20,000 nt of DNA from Chiloscyllium plagiosum (Eukaryota), in assembly GCF_004010195.1 (NCBI RefSeq), contig NC_057719.1:17097292-17117291 (forward strand). Direction: 5' to 3'. The position numbers were made by a program, and so were the translations under genes. The stretch's first letter is position 1. Every line of letters starts with the position of its first letter. Under the pieces are notes generated by a model, which was not told where the DNA came from, made no database searches, and was given only the letters and a program-made list of their open reading frames with translations. Shown here piece after piece: positions 1-19,640 of this stretch.

Positions 1-257
1 TGTTTCTTTTTCCTTGGTTGAATCTCTGCTGTTGAAACTTTATTGCTGGAACAGCACAGCAGGTCAGGCAGCATCCAGGGAACAGGAGATTCGACGTTTC
101 GGGCACAGGCCCCTCCCCGCCTCCATCCTACTCCGGCCTATCGCCTTCGCCTTGGCCTCTTTCCGCCTATCGCATTTCCGGCGCCCCTCCTCCGGGTCCC
201 TCCTCCCTACCTTTTGTCTTCTCCTGCTGAACACTCTCTGGGTTTGTAGTTTGTGGT

Positions 258-887
258 TTCTACTACAAATCAACCGACTCCCACAGCTACCTGGACTACA
301 CCTCCTCCCATCCTGCCCCCTGTAAAAACGCCATCCCATTCTCCCAATTCCTTCGTCTCCGCCGCATCTGCTCCCAGGAGGACCAGTTCAAAATACGTAC
401 AACCCAGATGGCCTCCTTCTTCAAGGACCGCAATTTCCCCCCCCACGTGGTCGACGGTGCCCTCCACCGCATCTCCTCCACTTCCCGCTCCTCCGCCCTT
501 GAGCCCCGCCCCTCCAACCGCCACCAGGACAGAACCCCACTGGTCCTCACCTACCACCCCACCAATCTCCATGTACAGCGCATCATCCGCCGTCACTTCC
601 GCCACCTCCAAACAGACCCCAGCACCAAGGATATATTTCCCTCCCCACCCCTATCAGCTTTCCGTAGAGACCACTCCCTCCGCGACTCCCTTGTCAGATC
701 CACACCCCCCACCGACCCAACCACCACTCCCGGCACCTTCCCTTGCAACCGCAGGAGGTGCAACACTTGCGCCCACACCTCCCCCCTCACTTCTCTCCAA
801 GGCCCCAAAGGAAAATTCCATATCCGCCACAGATTCACCTGCACCTCCACCCACATCATCTACTGCATCCGCTGCAGCCGGTGTGGC
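258..887 (+). pseudogene. PLE polyprotein remnant: RT thumb, Cys-rich linker and start of the GIY-YIG endonuclease (truncated at both ends)
   Basis: An open frame continuous with ORF 408..1022 reads FYYKSTDSHSYLDYTSSHP..KNAIPFSQFLRLRRICS, PLVLTYHP, AFRRDHSLRDSLV, GTFPCNRRRCNTC and FTCTSTHIIYCIRCSRCG. It breaks just before the expected YIG motif. Confidence 0.88.
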
Positions 888-1034
888 TGCAGTCTTCTTC
901 TTGACCTCTCCGCCTCCATCCTACTCTGGCCTATTGCCTTCGCCTTGGCCTCTTTCCGCCTATCGCATTTCCGGCGCCCCTCCTCCGGGTCCTCCTCCCT
1001 ACCTTTTGTCTTCTCCTGCTGAACACTCTCTGCT

Positions 1035-1071
1035 CATTCCTGGGGAGGGGCCTGTGCCCGAAACGTCGAAT
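1035..1071 (+). ncRNA. Mutated minimal hammerhead ribozyme in the PLE pseudo-LTR (core reads CUGGGGA instead of CUGAAGA)
   Basis: Sequence cattc-ctgggga-g-gggc ctgt gccc-gaaacgtc-gaat. Sister copies at 8498 and 12476 read ctgaagaagggc. Confidence 0.65.
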
Positions 1072-1450
1072 CTCCTGTTCCCTGGATGCTGCCTGACCTG
1101 CTGTGCTGTTCCAGCAATAAAGTTTCAACTTTGATCTCCAGCATCTGCAGACCTCACTTTCTCCTTGAATCTCTGCTGTGTCTCCTGAATTACTCCCATA
1201 AACTCCTTCCATTGCTGTTCCATTGTCTTTCCTGCTTGGCTCCTCTCCCAGTCAGTTCTACCCAGCTCTTCCCTCATGCCTCTGTAGTTGCCTTTATTCA
1301 GCTGTAATACTGTTACCTCTGATTCTATCTTCTCCCTCTCAAACTGCAAATCATATTATGATCACTGCCTCCTAAGAGTTACTTTACTTTAAGCTCCCTT
1401 ACTAAGTCTGTCTCATTGCACAACACTAAATCCAGTATTGCCTGTTCCCT

Positions 1451-2432: not shown

Positions 2433-3010
2433 GTTTCTTGTTTCCCCTGAATTAGTCAAAATGCCACTCATCTCTTTTTTGGATTCTGGCTCATGCCCCG
2501 GGAATAATTCACAGCAGAGGATGGCCATTTGGGTGGTTTTCAAGGCTTTGTTTTCATAAAACAAACCGTGCTGCTCTGAAATGTATGGAAATCCCTCTGT
2601 CCCGGAGTAGAAATCCAGTGGGAGACATTCTTTTTGTGCCTGGCAATATGGTTCAAAAACGTTGAGGTTGATGGAATGATGATCTCTTATCTAGCTAATC
2701 AGGATTTTGGGATAATTAAGTTTCCAGTGTTACTCAGTCCCCAGCACAAAACTGTCTAAAAATTGCTGGAACACTGTACTCTAACTCATACAGGCTGAAG
2801 AAAATTCCACAGATGCTACAGGTGATATTAATCTTATAACATAGTTAACCATTTTTATGCCAGAATGAAGCCTCACTGCGCAACCACCCTCCTGTTATAT
2901 TCAATCGTGCAGTGCGCCACACTGAGTAAAATGGAGATGTGCTCCATCCAGATTTACTGTACTGAAGTGCAGAAACCTTTCTGAAACCATTGGTTTCAGC
3001 CAATGTAGAT

Positions 3011-5746
3011 GATCATAGAGATGTACAGCACAGAAACCAACCTTTCGGTCCAACCCCCCATGCCAACCAGATATCCCAACCTAATCCAGTTCCACTTGCC
3101 AGCACCCGGCCCATATCCTTCCAAAGCCTTCCTATTTATATACCCATCCAGATGCCTTTTAAATGTTGCAATTGTACCAGCCTCCACCGCTTTCTCTGGC
3201 AGTTCATTACATACACGCACCACCCTTTGCATGAAAACGTAGCCCCTTAGGTCCCTTTTATATCTTTCCTCTCTCACCCGAAACCTATATCCTCTAGTTC
3301 TGGACTCCCTCACTCCAGGGAAAAGACCTTGTCTACTTACCCTATCCATGCCCCTCATGATTTTAAAGTCACCCGTCAGCCTCCGACGCTCCAGGGAAAA
3401 TATCCCCAACCAATTCAACCTCTCCCTGTAGCTCAAATACTCCAACCCTGATAAGATCCTTATAAATCTTTTCTGAATCCTTTCAAGTTTCATACCATCC
3501 TTCTGATAGGAAGGAGACCAGAATTGCATGCAATATGACAAAAGTGGCCTAAGCAACATCCTGTACAGCCATAACATGACCTCCCAACTCCTGTACTCAA
3601 TGCTTTGACCAATAAAGGAAAACATACCAAATGCCTTCTTCACTATCCTATCTACCTACAACTCTACTTTCAAGGAGCTATGAACCTGCACTCCAAGGTC
3701 TCTTTGTTCAGCAACACTCCCTAGGACCTTACCATAAAGCGTATAAATCTTCCTAAGATTTACTTTCCCAAAATGCAGCACCTCGCATTTATAAGAATTA
3801 AACTCCATCTGCCACTCCTCAGCCCATTGGCCCACCTGGTCCAGATCCTGTTGTAATCTGAGGTAACCTTTTTCACTGTCCACTGTAGTTCCAATTTTGG
3901 TGTCACCTGCAAACTTACTAACTACACCTCCTATGTTCTCATCTAAATCATTAACATAAATGACGAAAAGTAGTGAACCCAGCACTGATCCTTGTGGCAC
4001 TGCACTGGTCACAGGCCCCCAGTCTGAAAAAAACCCTCCACTACCACCCTTTGTTTTCTACCTTCAAGCCAGTTCTGTATCCAAATGGCTAGTTCTCCCT
4101 GTATTTCCCCTTGCTAACAAGTGTCGCATGGGGAATCTTGTCGAACTCCTTACTGAAGTCCATATAGATCACGTCCATCACTCTGCCCTCATCAATTCTC
4201 TTTATCACTTCTTCAAAAAACTCAATCAAGTTTGTGAAACATGATTTCCCATGCACAAAGCCATGTTGACTAGCCCAAATCAGTGCTTGCCTTTCCAAAT
4301 ATATGTACATTCTGCCCCTCAGGATTCCCTCCAACAATGTGCCCACCACTGATGTCGACCTTACTTAAATAGTGGCACCACATTAGCCAATCTCCAATCT
4401 TCCACCTGTGAATATCGATGATGCAAATATCTCAGCAAGCGGCCAAGCAATCACTTCCCTAGCTTCCCACAGAGTTCTGGGGTACATCTGATCAGGTCCT
4501 GGGGATTTATCCACTGTTGCACATTTCAAGACATTCATTACTTCATCCTCTGTAATATGGGCATTTTTCAAGATTTCACCATCTATTTCCCGACATTTTA
4601 TATCTTCCGTGTCCTTTTCCACAGTAAACACTGATGCAAGATACTCGTTTACGATCTCTCCTATGTCCTGCGGCTCCACACAAAGGCAGCCTTGCTGATC
4701 TTTGAGGGGCCCTATTGTCTCCCTCATTACCCTTCTGTCCTTAATGTATTTGTAAAAACCCTTTAGATTCTCCTTCACCCTATTTGCCAAAGCTATCTCA
4801 TGTCCCCTTTTTGCCCTCCTGATTTCTCTCTTAAGTATACTCCTACTTTATACTCTTCTAAGGATTCACTCGATCTATCCTGTCTGTACCTAACATATGC
4901 TTCCTTCTTTTTCTTCACCAAACCCTCAATTTCTCTGGTCATCCAGCATTCCCTATACCTACCAACCTTTCCTTTCACCCTCACAAATATACCATCTCTG
5001 GACACTTGTTATCTCATTTCTGAAGGCTTCCACTTTTCCATCCATCCCTTTATCTGCAAATATCTGCTCTCAATCAGTTTTTGAAAGTTCTTGCCTAATA
5101 CCATCAAATTAGCCTTTCTCCAAATTAGAACTTCAATTTTTAGATCCATTCTATCCTTTTCCATCACTATTTTAAAACTAATAGAATTATAGTCGCTGGC
5201 CCCAAAGTGCTCCCCCACTGACACCTCAGTCACCTTTCCTGCCTTATTTCCCAAGAGTAGGTCAGGTTTTGTACCTTCTCTTGTAGGTACATCCACATAT
5301 TGCATCAGAAAACTGTCTTGTACACACTTAACAAATTCCTATCCATCTAAATCCTGAACACTATGGCAGTTCCAGTCTATGTTTGGAAAGTTAAAATCCT
5401 CAAGCATAACCACCCTCTTATTCTTACAGATAACTGAAATCTCATTACAAATTTGTTTCTCAATTTCCCACTGACTATTAGGGAGGGTCTATAATAGATC
5501 ATCCCTTTCTCATTTCTCAGTTCCACCCAAATAACTTCCCTTGATGGATTTCCGGGAATATCCTCCCCAAGTACAGCTGTAACATTATCCCTTACCAAAA
5601 ATGCCACTCCACCTCCTCTCTTGCCTCCCTTTCTATCCTTCCTGTAGCATTTGTATCCTGGAACATTAAGCTGCCAGTCCTGTCCATCCCTGAGCCACGT
5701 TTCTATAATTGCTATGATATTCCAATCCTATGTTCCTATCCATGCC
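3011..5746 (-). mobile_element. CR1-clade LINE (HER1-like), 5'-truncated within the endonuclease; ORF2 disrupted
   Basis: Broken ORFs give IIAIIETWL (about 5690), ASDYN, KSPGPDQMYPR, QHGFVHGKSCFTNL, DVIYMDFSKEFDKIPH, AVPQGSVLGSLLF, SKFAGDTK, EEWQMEFN..KC and QRDLGV. The 3' UTR and tail (tcatagag) lie at about 3011-3060. Confidence 0.95.
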
Positions 5747-7087: not shown

Positions 7088-8416
7088 TCATAGAATCATA
7101 GAGATGTACAGCACGTAAACAGACCCATCAATCCAAATCATCCATGCCAACCAGATATCCTAGATAAATCTAATATAACTGCTAGAATTTGGCCCAATCC
7201 CTGTAAACGCTTCCTATTCATATACCCATCCAGATGTCTTTAACTGTTGTAATTGTACCAGCCACTACCAGTTCTTCTGGCAGCTCAATCCATGCATGCA
7301 CCACCCTCTGTTTGAGATAGTTGTCCTTTTAAATGCCCTCCCCTCTAAGATTAACCTATGCCCTCCAGTTATGGAGTCTTCCACCCTGGGGAAAAGACCT
7401 TGTCTATTTACCCTATCCATGCCCCTCATGACTTTATAAACCTCTATAAGGTCACCCCTCAGCCTCTGATGCTCCAGGGAAAATAGCCCCAGCCTATTTA
7501 GCCTCTCCCTATAGCTCAAAATCTCCAACCCCAGTGACATCCTTGTAAATCTTTTCTGAACTCTTTCAAGTTTCACAATATCTTTCCTAAAGGAAGGAGA
7601 CCATAATTGCATGCAATATTTCAATAGTGGCCTAACCAATGTCCTGTATAGCTGCAACATGACCTCCCAACTCCCACCTCCAAAGTCTTCTTCACTATCC
7701 TGTCTACTTATGACTCCACTTTCAAGGAGGTATGAACCTGCACTCCAAGGTCTCTTTATTGAGCAAAACTCCCCAGATCTTACCATAAGCTTATAAGTGC
7801 TGCCCTGATTTGCATGCCCAAAATGCAACTCCTCGCATTTATCTAAATTAAACTCCATCTGTCATTCCTCAGCCCAATGCCCCAATTGATCAATTGAAAA
7901 ACAGCCCTCCACCACCACCCTCTGTCTTCTGCCTTCGAACCAGCTCTGTATTCAAATGGCAAGTTCTCGCTATATTCCATAAGATCTAACCTGGCTAACC
8001 AGTCTACCACAAGGAACCTTGTTGAAGCCTTACTGAAGTCAATTTTGATCATGTCCATCACTCTGCCCTCATTAAACCTCTGTTGTTTCTTCAAAAACAC
8101 TCAATTAAATAGTGAGACCTGATTTCCACGCACAAACTCATGTTGACTATCCCTAATCAGTGCTTGCCTTTCCAAATACATGTACATCCTGTCCTTCAGG
8201 ATTCCCTCCAAAAACGTGCCGACCACCGATGTTGGGCTCACCAGTCTATAGGTCCCAGGCTTTTTGTTACCGCTTTTCTTAAATAGTGGCACCACATTAG
8301 CCAACCTCCAGACTTCTGGAACCTCACCAATGCTATCAATGAAGTAAATATCTCAGCAAGAGGGCCAGCAATCACTTTCCTAGCTTCCCACAGAGTTCTA
8401 GGGTACCCTGATTAGA

Positions 8417-8624
8417 GCTGAAACTTTATTGCTGGAACAGCACAGCAGGTCAGGCAGCATCTAGGGAACAGAAGATTCGACGTTTCGGGCACATGCCCTG
8501 AAGAAGGGCATGTGCCCGAAACGTCGAATCTTCTGTTCCCTAGATGCTGCCTGACCTGCTGTGCTGTGCTGTTCCAGCAATAAAGTTTCAGCTTTGATCT
8601 CCAGCGTCTGCAGACCTCACTTTC
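8417..8624 (+). mobile_element. Fold-back (palindromic) PLE pseudo-LTR insertion inside CR1
   Basis: Arms 8416-8498 and 8506-8593 are complementary except for a 5-bp gtgct duplication, around a 7-nt loop tgaagaa. TSD accctgattaga at 8405-8416 and 8625-8636. Confidence 0.9.
8498..8529 (+). ncRNA. Minimal hammerhead core (5' arm of stem I lost at the fold-back junction)
   Basis: ctgaaga-a-gggc atgt gccc-gaaacgtc-gaat, with palindromic ACGT and a GUC triplet ending at 8525. Confidence 0.7.
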
Positions 8625-9242
8625 ACCCTGATTAGATCCTGGGGTGTATCCACCTTTATGAGTTTTAATACGTCCAGCACCTCTTCCTCTGTAATATGGA
8701 CATTTTTCAAGGTGTCCCTATTTATTTCCCCATGTTCTATATCTTCCATGTCCTTTTCCACAGTAAATGCTGATGCAAAATACTCATTTAGTATCTCCGC
8801 CACTTCCTGCAGATCCACAGAGGCTGCCTTCCTGATCTTTGAGGGGCCCTATTCTCTTCCCAGTTACCCTTTTGTCCTTAATGTATTTATAAAATCCCTT
8901 TGGATTTGCCTTAACCCTATTAGCCAAAGATATCTCATTACCCTTTTTGCCCACCTTATTTCCCTCTTAATTATATTCTTACTGCCTTTCTACTCTTCCA
9001 AGGATTCACTTGATCTCTGCAGTCTATACCTGACATATAATTCCTTCTTATCCATGACCAAAACCACAATCCTCCTGTCATCCACCTTGCCCACAGCCTT
9101 ACCCTTCACTCTATCAGGAACACACTGTCTCTGAACTCTCATTGCCTCACTTTCGAAGGCTTCCCATTTTCCAGCCATCCCTTTTACCTGCAAAAATCTG
9201 CTCCAATCAACTTTTGAAAGTTCTTGCCCCATACTGTCAAAA

Positions 9243-12237: not shown

Positions 12238-12763
12238 TTTTTTTATTGTTCATTCATGGGATGAGGCCAGCATTTATTGTCCATCCCTAATTGCCAGAGT
12301 CAGCCACATTGCTATGGGTCTGGAGTTACATGTAGCCTAGGAGAAAGTGAGAACTGCAGATGCTGGAGATCAGAGCTGAAAAATGTGTTGCTGGAAAAGC
12401 GCAGCAGGTCAGGCAGCATCCAAGGAGCAGGGGAATCAATGTTTCGGGCATAAGCCCTTCTTCAGGAGTGCATTCCTGAAGAAGGGCTTATGCCCGAAAC
12501 ATCGATTCTCCTGCTCCTTGGATGCTGCCTGACCTGTTACATGTAGCCTAGACCAGGTAAGGATGGTAATTCCCTTCCCTAAAGTGAACCAGATGGGTTT
12601 TTCCAACAATGGGTTCATGGTCATCAACAGACTCCTCGTTCCAGATTTTTATTCACTTACAATTCCACCATCTGCCATGGTGGGGTTTGAACCTGGGTCC
12701 CAGGAGCATTACCTGGATTGCTGGATTAACAGTCCAGTGATAATACCACCAGGCCATTGCCTT
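12238..12763 (-). mobile_element. SacSINE1/DeuSINE-like SINE interrupted by a fold-back PLE insertion
   Basis: Minus-strand head aggcaatggcctggtggtattatcactggactgttaatccag...ggttcaaacccc; tail gacaataaatgctggcct...cccatgaatgaacaataaa. Confidence 0.8.
12341..12535 (-). mobile_element. Fold-back PLE pseudo-LTR insertion with hammerhead cores on both strands
   Basis: TSD gttacatgtagcctag at 12325-12340 and 12536-12551. Spacer-less near-palindrome centred at 12470/12471 (ttcaggagtg|cattcctgaa). Confidence 0.9.
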
Positions 12764-18749: not shown

Positions 18750-19640
18750 CAGTGTCACTGGACGAGTACTCCAGAGGCCTACACTAGAGTCACATTTATA
18801 GAGTCATAGAGATGTACCGCACAGAAAAGACTCTTTGGTCCAACCCATCCATATCGACCAGATATCCTAAATAATCTAGTCCCATTCGCCAGCATCTGGC
18901 CCATATCCCTCTAAACCCTTCCTTTTCATCTATCCATCCAGATGCTTTTTAAATGTTGTAATTGTACCGGCCTCCACCACTTCCTCTGGCAGCTCATTCC
19001 ATACACACACCACCCTCCATAAAAAAGTTGCCCCTTAGGTCTCTTTCATATCTTTCCCCTCTCACCCTAAACCTATGCCCTCTAGTTCTGGACTCCCCCA
19101 CCTCAGGGTAAAGATTTTGTCTATTTATCTTATCCATGTCCCTTATAATTTTGTAAACCTCTATAAGGTCACCCCTCTACTTCCGACACTCCAGGGAAAA
19201 CAGCCCCAGCCTGTTCAGCTCTCCCTATAGCTCAAGTCCTCCAACCTGGCAGCATCCTTGTGAATCTTTTCTGAACGTTTTGAAGTTTCACAACATCCTT
19301 CCTATAGCAGGGAGACCAATGGGGATCAAACCCCAATGTCACACTGTTAAGAGTTGAATGAATAAATCTGGAATTAATTAAAACAAAATTAGTCTTAGTA
19401 ATGGTGACTATGCATGTCCATTCAATGTGCGAACCCATCTGGTTCAATAATGAATTTTATGAAAGGAACTCTGGAATTGTTATCTGATCTGGCCCTCCAG
19501 GTTGACTGCAGACCCAGTGCAATCTGGCTGACTCTTAACTGTCCTCTGCAATGGTCAAGAAGCCACACCGTTCAATGGCAATTAGGGACAGGCAATAAGT
19601 ACCGCACTTAAATATGACATCCGATGAAAGAATAAGACAT
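18750..19640 (+). mobile_element. Diverged SacSINE1/DeuSINE-like SINE split by a CR1 fragment (parts about 18750-18790 and 19320-19640)
   Basis: gtcactggacgagtactccagagg, then aataaatctggaatt...taatggtgactatg...cccatctggttca...gactgcagaccca...ggctgactcttaactgtcctctg...ggcaattagggacaggcaataa. Confidence 0.65.
18800..19318 (-). mobile_element. CR1 3' fragment of about 520 bp (same family as the 3011 and 7088 copies)
   Basis: Tail agagtcatagagatgtac; colinear with 3011-3520; translation WSPCYRKDVVKLQNVQKRFTRMLPG. Confidence 0.92.

Follow-up and report, generated by a model that had tools for sequence, protein, structure and literature searches.

The insertion at positions 31-1165 of the window, that is, of the whole 20,000-nt stretch of DNA analysed here (17097292-17117291, from a 3.56-Gb genome assembly), is a single, 5'-truncated copy of a young Penelope family. 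Between 929 and 1047 it reads G at 14 of 23 family As, whereas none of the 37 Ts of the same tract is changed to C (p=5e-8). These changes very probably arose by ADAR hyper-editing of a fold-back source transcript that was then retrotransposed, the reverse transcriptase having read inosine as G. A-to-I editing followed by retrotransposition had been put forward in the initial annotation of the sequence, and the reading is supported by the privacy of the haplotype, the enrichment of A>G and the agreement between the duplicated segments of the copy.

The features of the insertion are collected in the table below. The inverted arm ends at 1129, the direct copy ends at 1165 and the target-site duplication (TSD) is 15 nt long, an arrangement that corresponds to the Penelope layout of an inverted tail-less pLTR, a 30-40 nt tail and a short TSD given in the accessible text of PMC3846280 and PMC11167929. 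The ORF piece, which differs from the family by 4 substitutions in 629 nt, gave no Pfam match itself; it is 97% identical in amino acid sequence to a sister ORF bearing RVT_1 (E=1e-8), in which the GIY-YIG match is weak (E=2e-4, 21.9 bits, slightly below the cut-off of 22.6). Through this sister ORF, with its RT and GIY-YIG, the copy can be assigned to the EN+ Penelope-like elements. The direct duplicate at 112-240 joins the inverted arm through a 7-nt overlap. Within the filler, 241-250 match the ORF start at 10 of 10 positions on the minus strand; over the unique part of the filler (247-255) a contig depth of 14.5 and 18.4 was obtained in two contig sets, which is a hint only of presence. 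The junction at 887/888 was spanned by none of the 39 other scored ORF matches (40 scored of 3,271 candidates).

Table. Features of the insertion and its flanks (positions in the window).
Feature	Position	Strand	Basis or remark
Left target-site duplication, 15 nt	18..32	+	same sequence as 1165-1179
Inverted tail-less pLTR arm	31..118	-	exact reverse complement of 1042-1129
Direct duplicate of 905-1032, same 11 A>G	112..240	+	alignment of both copies
Junction filler, 18 nt	241..258	.	241-250 = inverted copy of adjacent ORF start
ORF piece, 5'-truncated, unedited	259..887	+	from past RT core into GIY-YIG start
Internal deletion junction, 320 nt removed, endonuclease end gone	887..888	+	alignment to sister ORFs
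3' UTR / pLTR including hammerhead and tail	887..1165	+	family alignment
A>G tract, G at 14 of the 23 family As	929..1047	+	comparison with family majority
Minimal type I hammerhead	1036..1071	+	sequence read against PMC4209133 layout
Hammerhead parts	stem I 1036-1039/1068-1071, core 1040-1046, stem II 1048-1059, GAAA 1060-1063	+	PMC4209133 layout
Tail, missing from inverted arm, unedited in this copy	1130..1165	+	arm stops at 1129
Right target-site duplication, 15 nt	1165..1179	+	perfect match to 18-32

Other repeats are present in the window. Located 286 nt downstream (1451-1531) is a second piece of this young family, an unedited tail fragment on the minus strand with 99% identity, and at 8410-8627 and 12339-12536 there are palindromic hammerhead stubs that belong to the same superfamily and have kept their cores intact. 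A minus-strand repeat that bears an RT, and which we take to be CR1-like by motif, is present in three decayed copies (2996-5727, 7096-9134 and 18804-19318).

The reference for the substitution counts was the majority of the 29 best sister copies; the family is young, most sister copies being 97-100% identical to this majority. The right copy of the duplicated segment showed 14 A>G (929, 936, 942, 948, 958, 965, 973, 974, 987, 988, 1008, 1043, 1044 and 1047), no T>C and 3 C>T. Its G>A count was zero, so that a sense G>A cluster of the APOBEC type is absent. The initial annotation had caught only 3 of the 14 changes, those at 1043, 1044 and 1047, where 1040-1051 reads CTGGGGAGGGGC against CTGAAGAAGGGC at 8498 and 12476, and these three were confirmed. 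The unusual composition that it had reported for 118-240 was also reproduced (9 A and 9 CpG in 123 nt, the family majority having 20 A and 3 CpG), as were the two decayed CpGs of the second copy, C927T and C935T relative to the left one, beyond which the two copies differ by one 1-nt deletion. Outside the tract, A>G was absent from the 136 As of the ORF piece and from the 21 As downstream of 1047. The background was taken from 151 other family arms with 13,817 family As, a conservative choice in that arms picked for 1043G were included; it gave 101 A>G in 13,817, with no arm exceeding 3 within any 120 nt, and at this rate the probability of at least 14 changes among 190 As is 2e-10. The editing hypothesis had been made to stand or fall with an excess of A>G over other substitutions, and this excess is huge. 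Both the dense clustering of a single substitution type and its strand specificity are thus found in the focal copy.

The two direct copies have 20 family As in common, 11 of which read G in both and 9 A in both, with no discordance, and the inverted arm at 31-118 carries the complement of all three hammerhead changes, inside one TSD. This agreement at 20 of 20 As, together with the matching arm, indicates that the changes were already on a common template, and the earlier proposal that they predate or accompany integration therefore holds. C935T adjoins A936G and represents the decay expected of a CpG created by the change itself, which speaks for a passage of the G through germline DNA.

The hammerhead motif had 4,884 exact matches in the genome. 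At 1043 the A was retained in 4,869 of these motifs and G was present in 15, two of which have the triple change (the focal copy and locus L002) and one a double. The G alleles are not the consensus of a subfamily, an outcome that would have undermined the editing hypothesis, and whole-genome pattern counts restricted the upstream G haplotype to the two copies of this locus.

The genome was further searched with patterns that had G in place of the family As, four of them covering stretches of the pLTR and one a stretch of the ORF, and with mirrored controls, in which family Ts were set to C in two windows. The first pLTR pattern gave 16 matches, namely the focal locus twice, L115, L124 and 12 copies of an older subfamily; the latter were excluded as bursts, their own majority already having G at 965 and 973. 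The second gave L131 and L132, the third the focal locus and L115 only, and the fourth 13 matches spread over 9 loci, of which L140, L145, L139 and four older ones were new. There was no match to the ORF pattern genome-wide, and none to the mirrored T>C patterns in both of the two windows, against five young A>G loci (sign test, p=0.03). The other young bursts comprised 15/23 As in L115, 5/6 in L124, 8/12 in L131, 14/19 in L132 and 6/16 in L140, each locus carrying its own distinct A>G set, and over the six young spans, the focal one included, 62 of 66 substitutions were A>G. L145 and L139 have just 2-3 A>G each and the four older-subfamily loci 5-8 each. With six to ten young loci among 4,884 motifs, the lower bound of the frequency is about 0.1-0.2%. 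Changes on both arms were found in five of the six two-armed loci (focal, L131, L136, L140 and L145; not L124), and this sharing of edits between arms would favour one sense RNA over an antisense template.

Several of these loci have features of their own. L124:1252-1682 is a palindromic insertion whose arms differ both in edits and in subfamily alleles, so that it must derive either from two templates or from a source that was itself palindromic; T1034C on its second arm was considered as an antisense edit and rejected, the allele being present in L063, L073 and L082 too. L132:1360-1650 is a 125-nt pLTR stub with 14 A>G and an unusually long target duplication of 85 nt. L115:629-2050 is an edited copy that adjoins an assembly gap and has a 371-nt flanking direct repeat, which may be a TSD of great length or may result from duplication in the assembly. 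In run X2 a 304-nt contig over 943-1045 of the window was present at single-copy depth, with 5-6 differences from the edited sequence; it is possibly another edited copy, in a different animal. The older-subfamily stubs L136, L137, L138 and L147 share 1062G, 1063G, 1069G and T1125C. To judge from these alleles the four loci may be related by descent, and the alleles would reflect the spread of a single edited lineage or else a strong hotspot.

The alternative that survives best agrees with the preferred explanation on the cause and differs on the timing: ADAR would have edited the RNA in an earlier round, so that the Gs were present in the source DNA beforehand, and this DNA has since been lost or was left unassembled. 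The edits would then be uninformative on the building of the insertion from one RNA. No unedited source locus was found among the candidates scored (40 of 3,271 and 40 of 1,755 BLAST candidates), the private alleles of other types, C270T and G444C, being shared by 0 of 36 and 0 of 38 loci, and the alleles common to the four older loci could be due to descent from one edited copy. Against it, no second locus with the focal haplotype exists and the sets of the young bursts are private; we consider an earlier round unlikely, though worth bearing in mind.

For ADAR the expected order of 5' neighbours is A, U, C, G, as stated in the accessible part of PMC8586724. Pooled over the six young loci, the edited fractions were 24/30 after A, 8/12 after U, 19/34 after C and 11/23 after G (A/U vs C/G, p=0.014; G vs the rest, p=0.08). 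When the sites used in the searches were removed, G stood at 10/20, with p=0.18 for A/U vs C/G and p=0.43 for G vs the rest. Depletion of 5' G had been suggested as a check on ADAR: the pooled order agrees with it, but the depletion itself is marginal and disappears without the searched-for sites, and it fails in the focal copy alone, where 3 of 5 As following G and 1 of 4 following U were edited. Within the GAAA at 1060-1063, five loci have 1062G and 1063G without a change at 1061, the site preceded by G, and L132 has all three; the sparing of 1061 in five loci fits the ADAR neighbour rule.

Counts at the RNA level came from run X21, in which 1,948 reads aligned over 40-300 gave 17 places with A>G and 13 with T>C, counts that refer to an edited reference without matched DNA; from a second RNA run, X22, no reads aligned. 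The same comparison for two contig sets gave 6 A>G and 4 T>C each, the other change types being level with X21. At nine family-A sites the X21 reads were non-A in 87 of 443 cases in one read direction vs 8 of 188 in the other, where calls are not independent across sites and the sense direction of the RNA is inferred; sites 172 and 180 were dropped from these counts because the older subfamily has G there. The non-A reads could come from transcripts of edited genomic copies. Heavy hyper-editing of Penelope RNA in a lizard is described in the available text of PMC5625713.

A burst of errors in DNA synthesis, in which G was placed for A by the reverse transcriptase or during second-strand synthesis under nucleotide imbalance and with no editing at all, would likewise be strand-specific and clustered, and the weak neighbour preference fits it. 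Separate passes of synthesis should, however, err differently, whereas the direct copies show no disagreement at any of their 20 shared As (p=6e-6), a difficulty that could be escaped if one piece was copied from the DNA of the other. The bursts are moreover restricted to the part of the pLTR covered by arms, with none in the ORF, and RNA reads show an excess of A>G and T>C, so that an error burst appears improbable.

ADAR editing calls for a duplex, and this had been attributed to folding back of the transcript. The duplex is retained in our reading, but the fold-back of the focal locus itself was rejected as the ADAR substrate: it extends over 1042-1129, covers 3 of 14 sites and leaves 21 As after 1047 unchanged. 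With an arm of this extent, the duplex that was edited has to be placed in the source transcript, a location that we infer, the source locus not being among the scored candidates. A sense-strand partner inside the element was also rejected, the predicted fold of the unedited sense RNA leaving most edited As unpaired (pairing probability <0.35 for 10 of 14), and an antisense partner is thus needed. According to the accessible part of PMC13445718, editing requires mostly intramolecular duplexes and cis-antisense duplexes are rarely edited. Among the first 100 motifs listed, on one contig, 23 of 70 clusters hold both orientations, all head-to-head, and are capable of forming a hairpin; for one two-orientation locus the predicted fold pairs 94% of 1,017 nt. 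The inverted overlap among 84 fetched loci included 1006-1126 in 12, 887-950 in 2-3 and 1141-1165 in none. The bursts are confined to the zone covered by arms, with two exceptions in the tail, 1140 in L147 and 1143 in L140, the allele at 1143 occurring in three other loci too.

Inheritance of the G alleles from an older or CpG-rich subfamily, or their acquisition by gene conversion, is very improbable. Six of the 14 changes create a CpG, G is the base of the older subfamily at 965 and 973, and L002 shares the three hammerhead changes, all of which could be read in favour of inheritance. Eight changes do not form CpGs, however, and the focal copy has none of the other 25 diagnostic alleles of the older subfamily; its haplotype occurs at the focal locus only, and the other burst copies differ in their sets. 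L002 has none of the other alleles of the focal copy across the stretch that both cover, and on comparison of the two sequences it would be either a parallel hit or a remote relative. An assembly or polishing artefact, for instance from edited RNA reads or strand-biased base calls, is equally hard to credit: the early G-bearing matches lay on the plus strand of the assembly in 18 of 21 loci (p=0.0015), a bias not fully explained, and none of the public contigs compared was shown to span the insertion, but in the last search 5 matches lay on the plus and 8 on the minus strand, background A>G is 6 vs 8 by strand, the changes occur in both orientations within single loci (focal, L131, L136, L140 and L145), and C935T, present in one copy only, is what one would expect if a CpG made by an edit had decayed in genuine germline DNA.

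Under ADAR editing of a source transcript, the preferred explanation, the course of events may have been as follows. A source copy with an inverted pLTR arm would have been transcribed into a long hairpin, in which ADAR converted about 60% of the As within a 120-nt patch. Reverse transcription would have proceeded from the tail end (1165) through the uncleaved hammerhead and, by a 320-nt jump, into the ORF. The segment 905-1032 would have been re-copied, and the inverted arm built from the same edited molecule or from its cDNA. One CpG made by an edit would have decayed later.

The edits fall partly on the hammerhead ribozyme, whose stems I and II are present in the predicted fold of an unedited sister. 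We take A1043G to be core A6, A1044G the variable N7 and A1047G the bulged base. A search of Rfam gave no hammerhead match, just sub-threshold miRNA-like matches to the palindromes. The intact core CUGANGA...GAAA is present in the family and absent from the focal copy, where core A6 is G, and this loss is predicted from the sequence to stop self-cleavage. It is probably a by-product of where the duplex lay: the core is kept in L115 and L124, and ribozyme mutants insert normally in vitro. With the cores of L115 and L124 intact, selection for loss of the hammerhead is unsupported. The idea that the edits end at the ribozyme cut site was rejected too, since L131, L132, L140 and the four older loci are edited on both sides of it or downstream. 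In vitro, PLEs use chiefly uncleaved RNA as their substrate, as reported along with the insertion of ribozyme mutants in the accessible portion of PMC11167929. The focal copy is truncated and deleted regardless of the state of its hammerhead.

Apart from the bursts, 1043G and 1096G are common to nine distinct loci (L011/L043, L032, L035, L036, L038, L039, L040, L044 and L045), and a head-to-head junction 923/968 with a change at 993 of the other arm was found in L032, L035, L036, L040 and L044, also in L031 and L034. Judged by these shared alleles, a core-mutant lineage probably kept spreading, and this palindromic lineage perhaps transposed as a whole hairpin.

The principle that A>G hyperediting may be fixed by reverse transcription is known from two avian retroviruses, RAV-1 and avian leukosis virus (Felder 1994; Hajjar and Linial 1995, cited in the accessible part of PMC8586724), and the Penelope case adds to it. 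In the avian viruses, likewise, ADAR-type A>G clusters were made on RNA that was later reverse transcribed to DNA; here, in contrast, they belong to an endogenous Penelope-like retrotransposon and recur at ten or more loci of an assembled host genome. The hyper-editing of repeat RNA described in PMC5625713 concerns the same class of substrate, with clustered strand-specific A>G and dependence on fold-back, but its available text deals with RNA reads only and reports a strong depletion of upstream G, which is weak in the focal family. APOBEC editing of LTR retrotransposons (PMC4866542) also leaves deaminase scars fixed in the genome as strand-biased clusters against a consensus; it acts as G>A on the cDNA of LTR elements, whereas here the change is A>G in Penelope. 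In the part of that survey available, other cluster types are given as negligible and ADAR is mentioned nowhere. The EN+ Penelope insertions described in PMC3846280, PMC11167929 and PMC4209133 share with the focal copy the tail-less inverted arm, the tail of about 35 nt, the short TSD, the internal deletion and the minimal hammerhead, and editing scars are undescribed in the accessible parts of these papers. An antisense template for inverted arms is raised in PMC3846280, in its available text; here the scars are on the sense strand and common to both arms in five of six loci. No report of fixed ADAR scars in genomic copies of Penelope or of other non-LTR elements was found in the open-access literature, supplements excluded, and the accessible portions of PMC12925331, PMC2873906 and a retrozyme preprint contain nothing on such scars.

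The balance tips slightly towards a more general view, in which ADAR is a recurring germline mutagen of the Penelope family, hitting about 1-2 in 1,000 young insertions, and its scars act as barcodes showing that arm, duplicate and tail were copied in one event from one sense RNA with an uncleaved hammerhead, two primings on one sense RNA being favoured over an antisense template and the ribozyme being dispensable for insertion in vivo. If the editing origin is true, edited RNA would have changed the heritable DNA of a vertebrate directly, in a setting other than the retroviruses, with 14 substitutions and six new CpGs from one event. Penelope RNA would then meet ADAR in the cells that feed the germline, and the scars would provide natural barcodes for how Penelope builds its inverted ends, and from which RNA strand.
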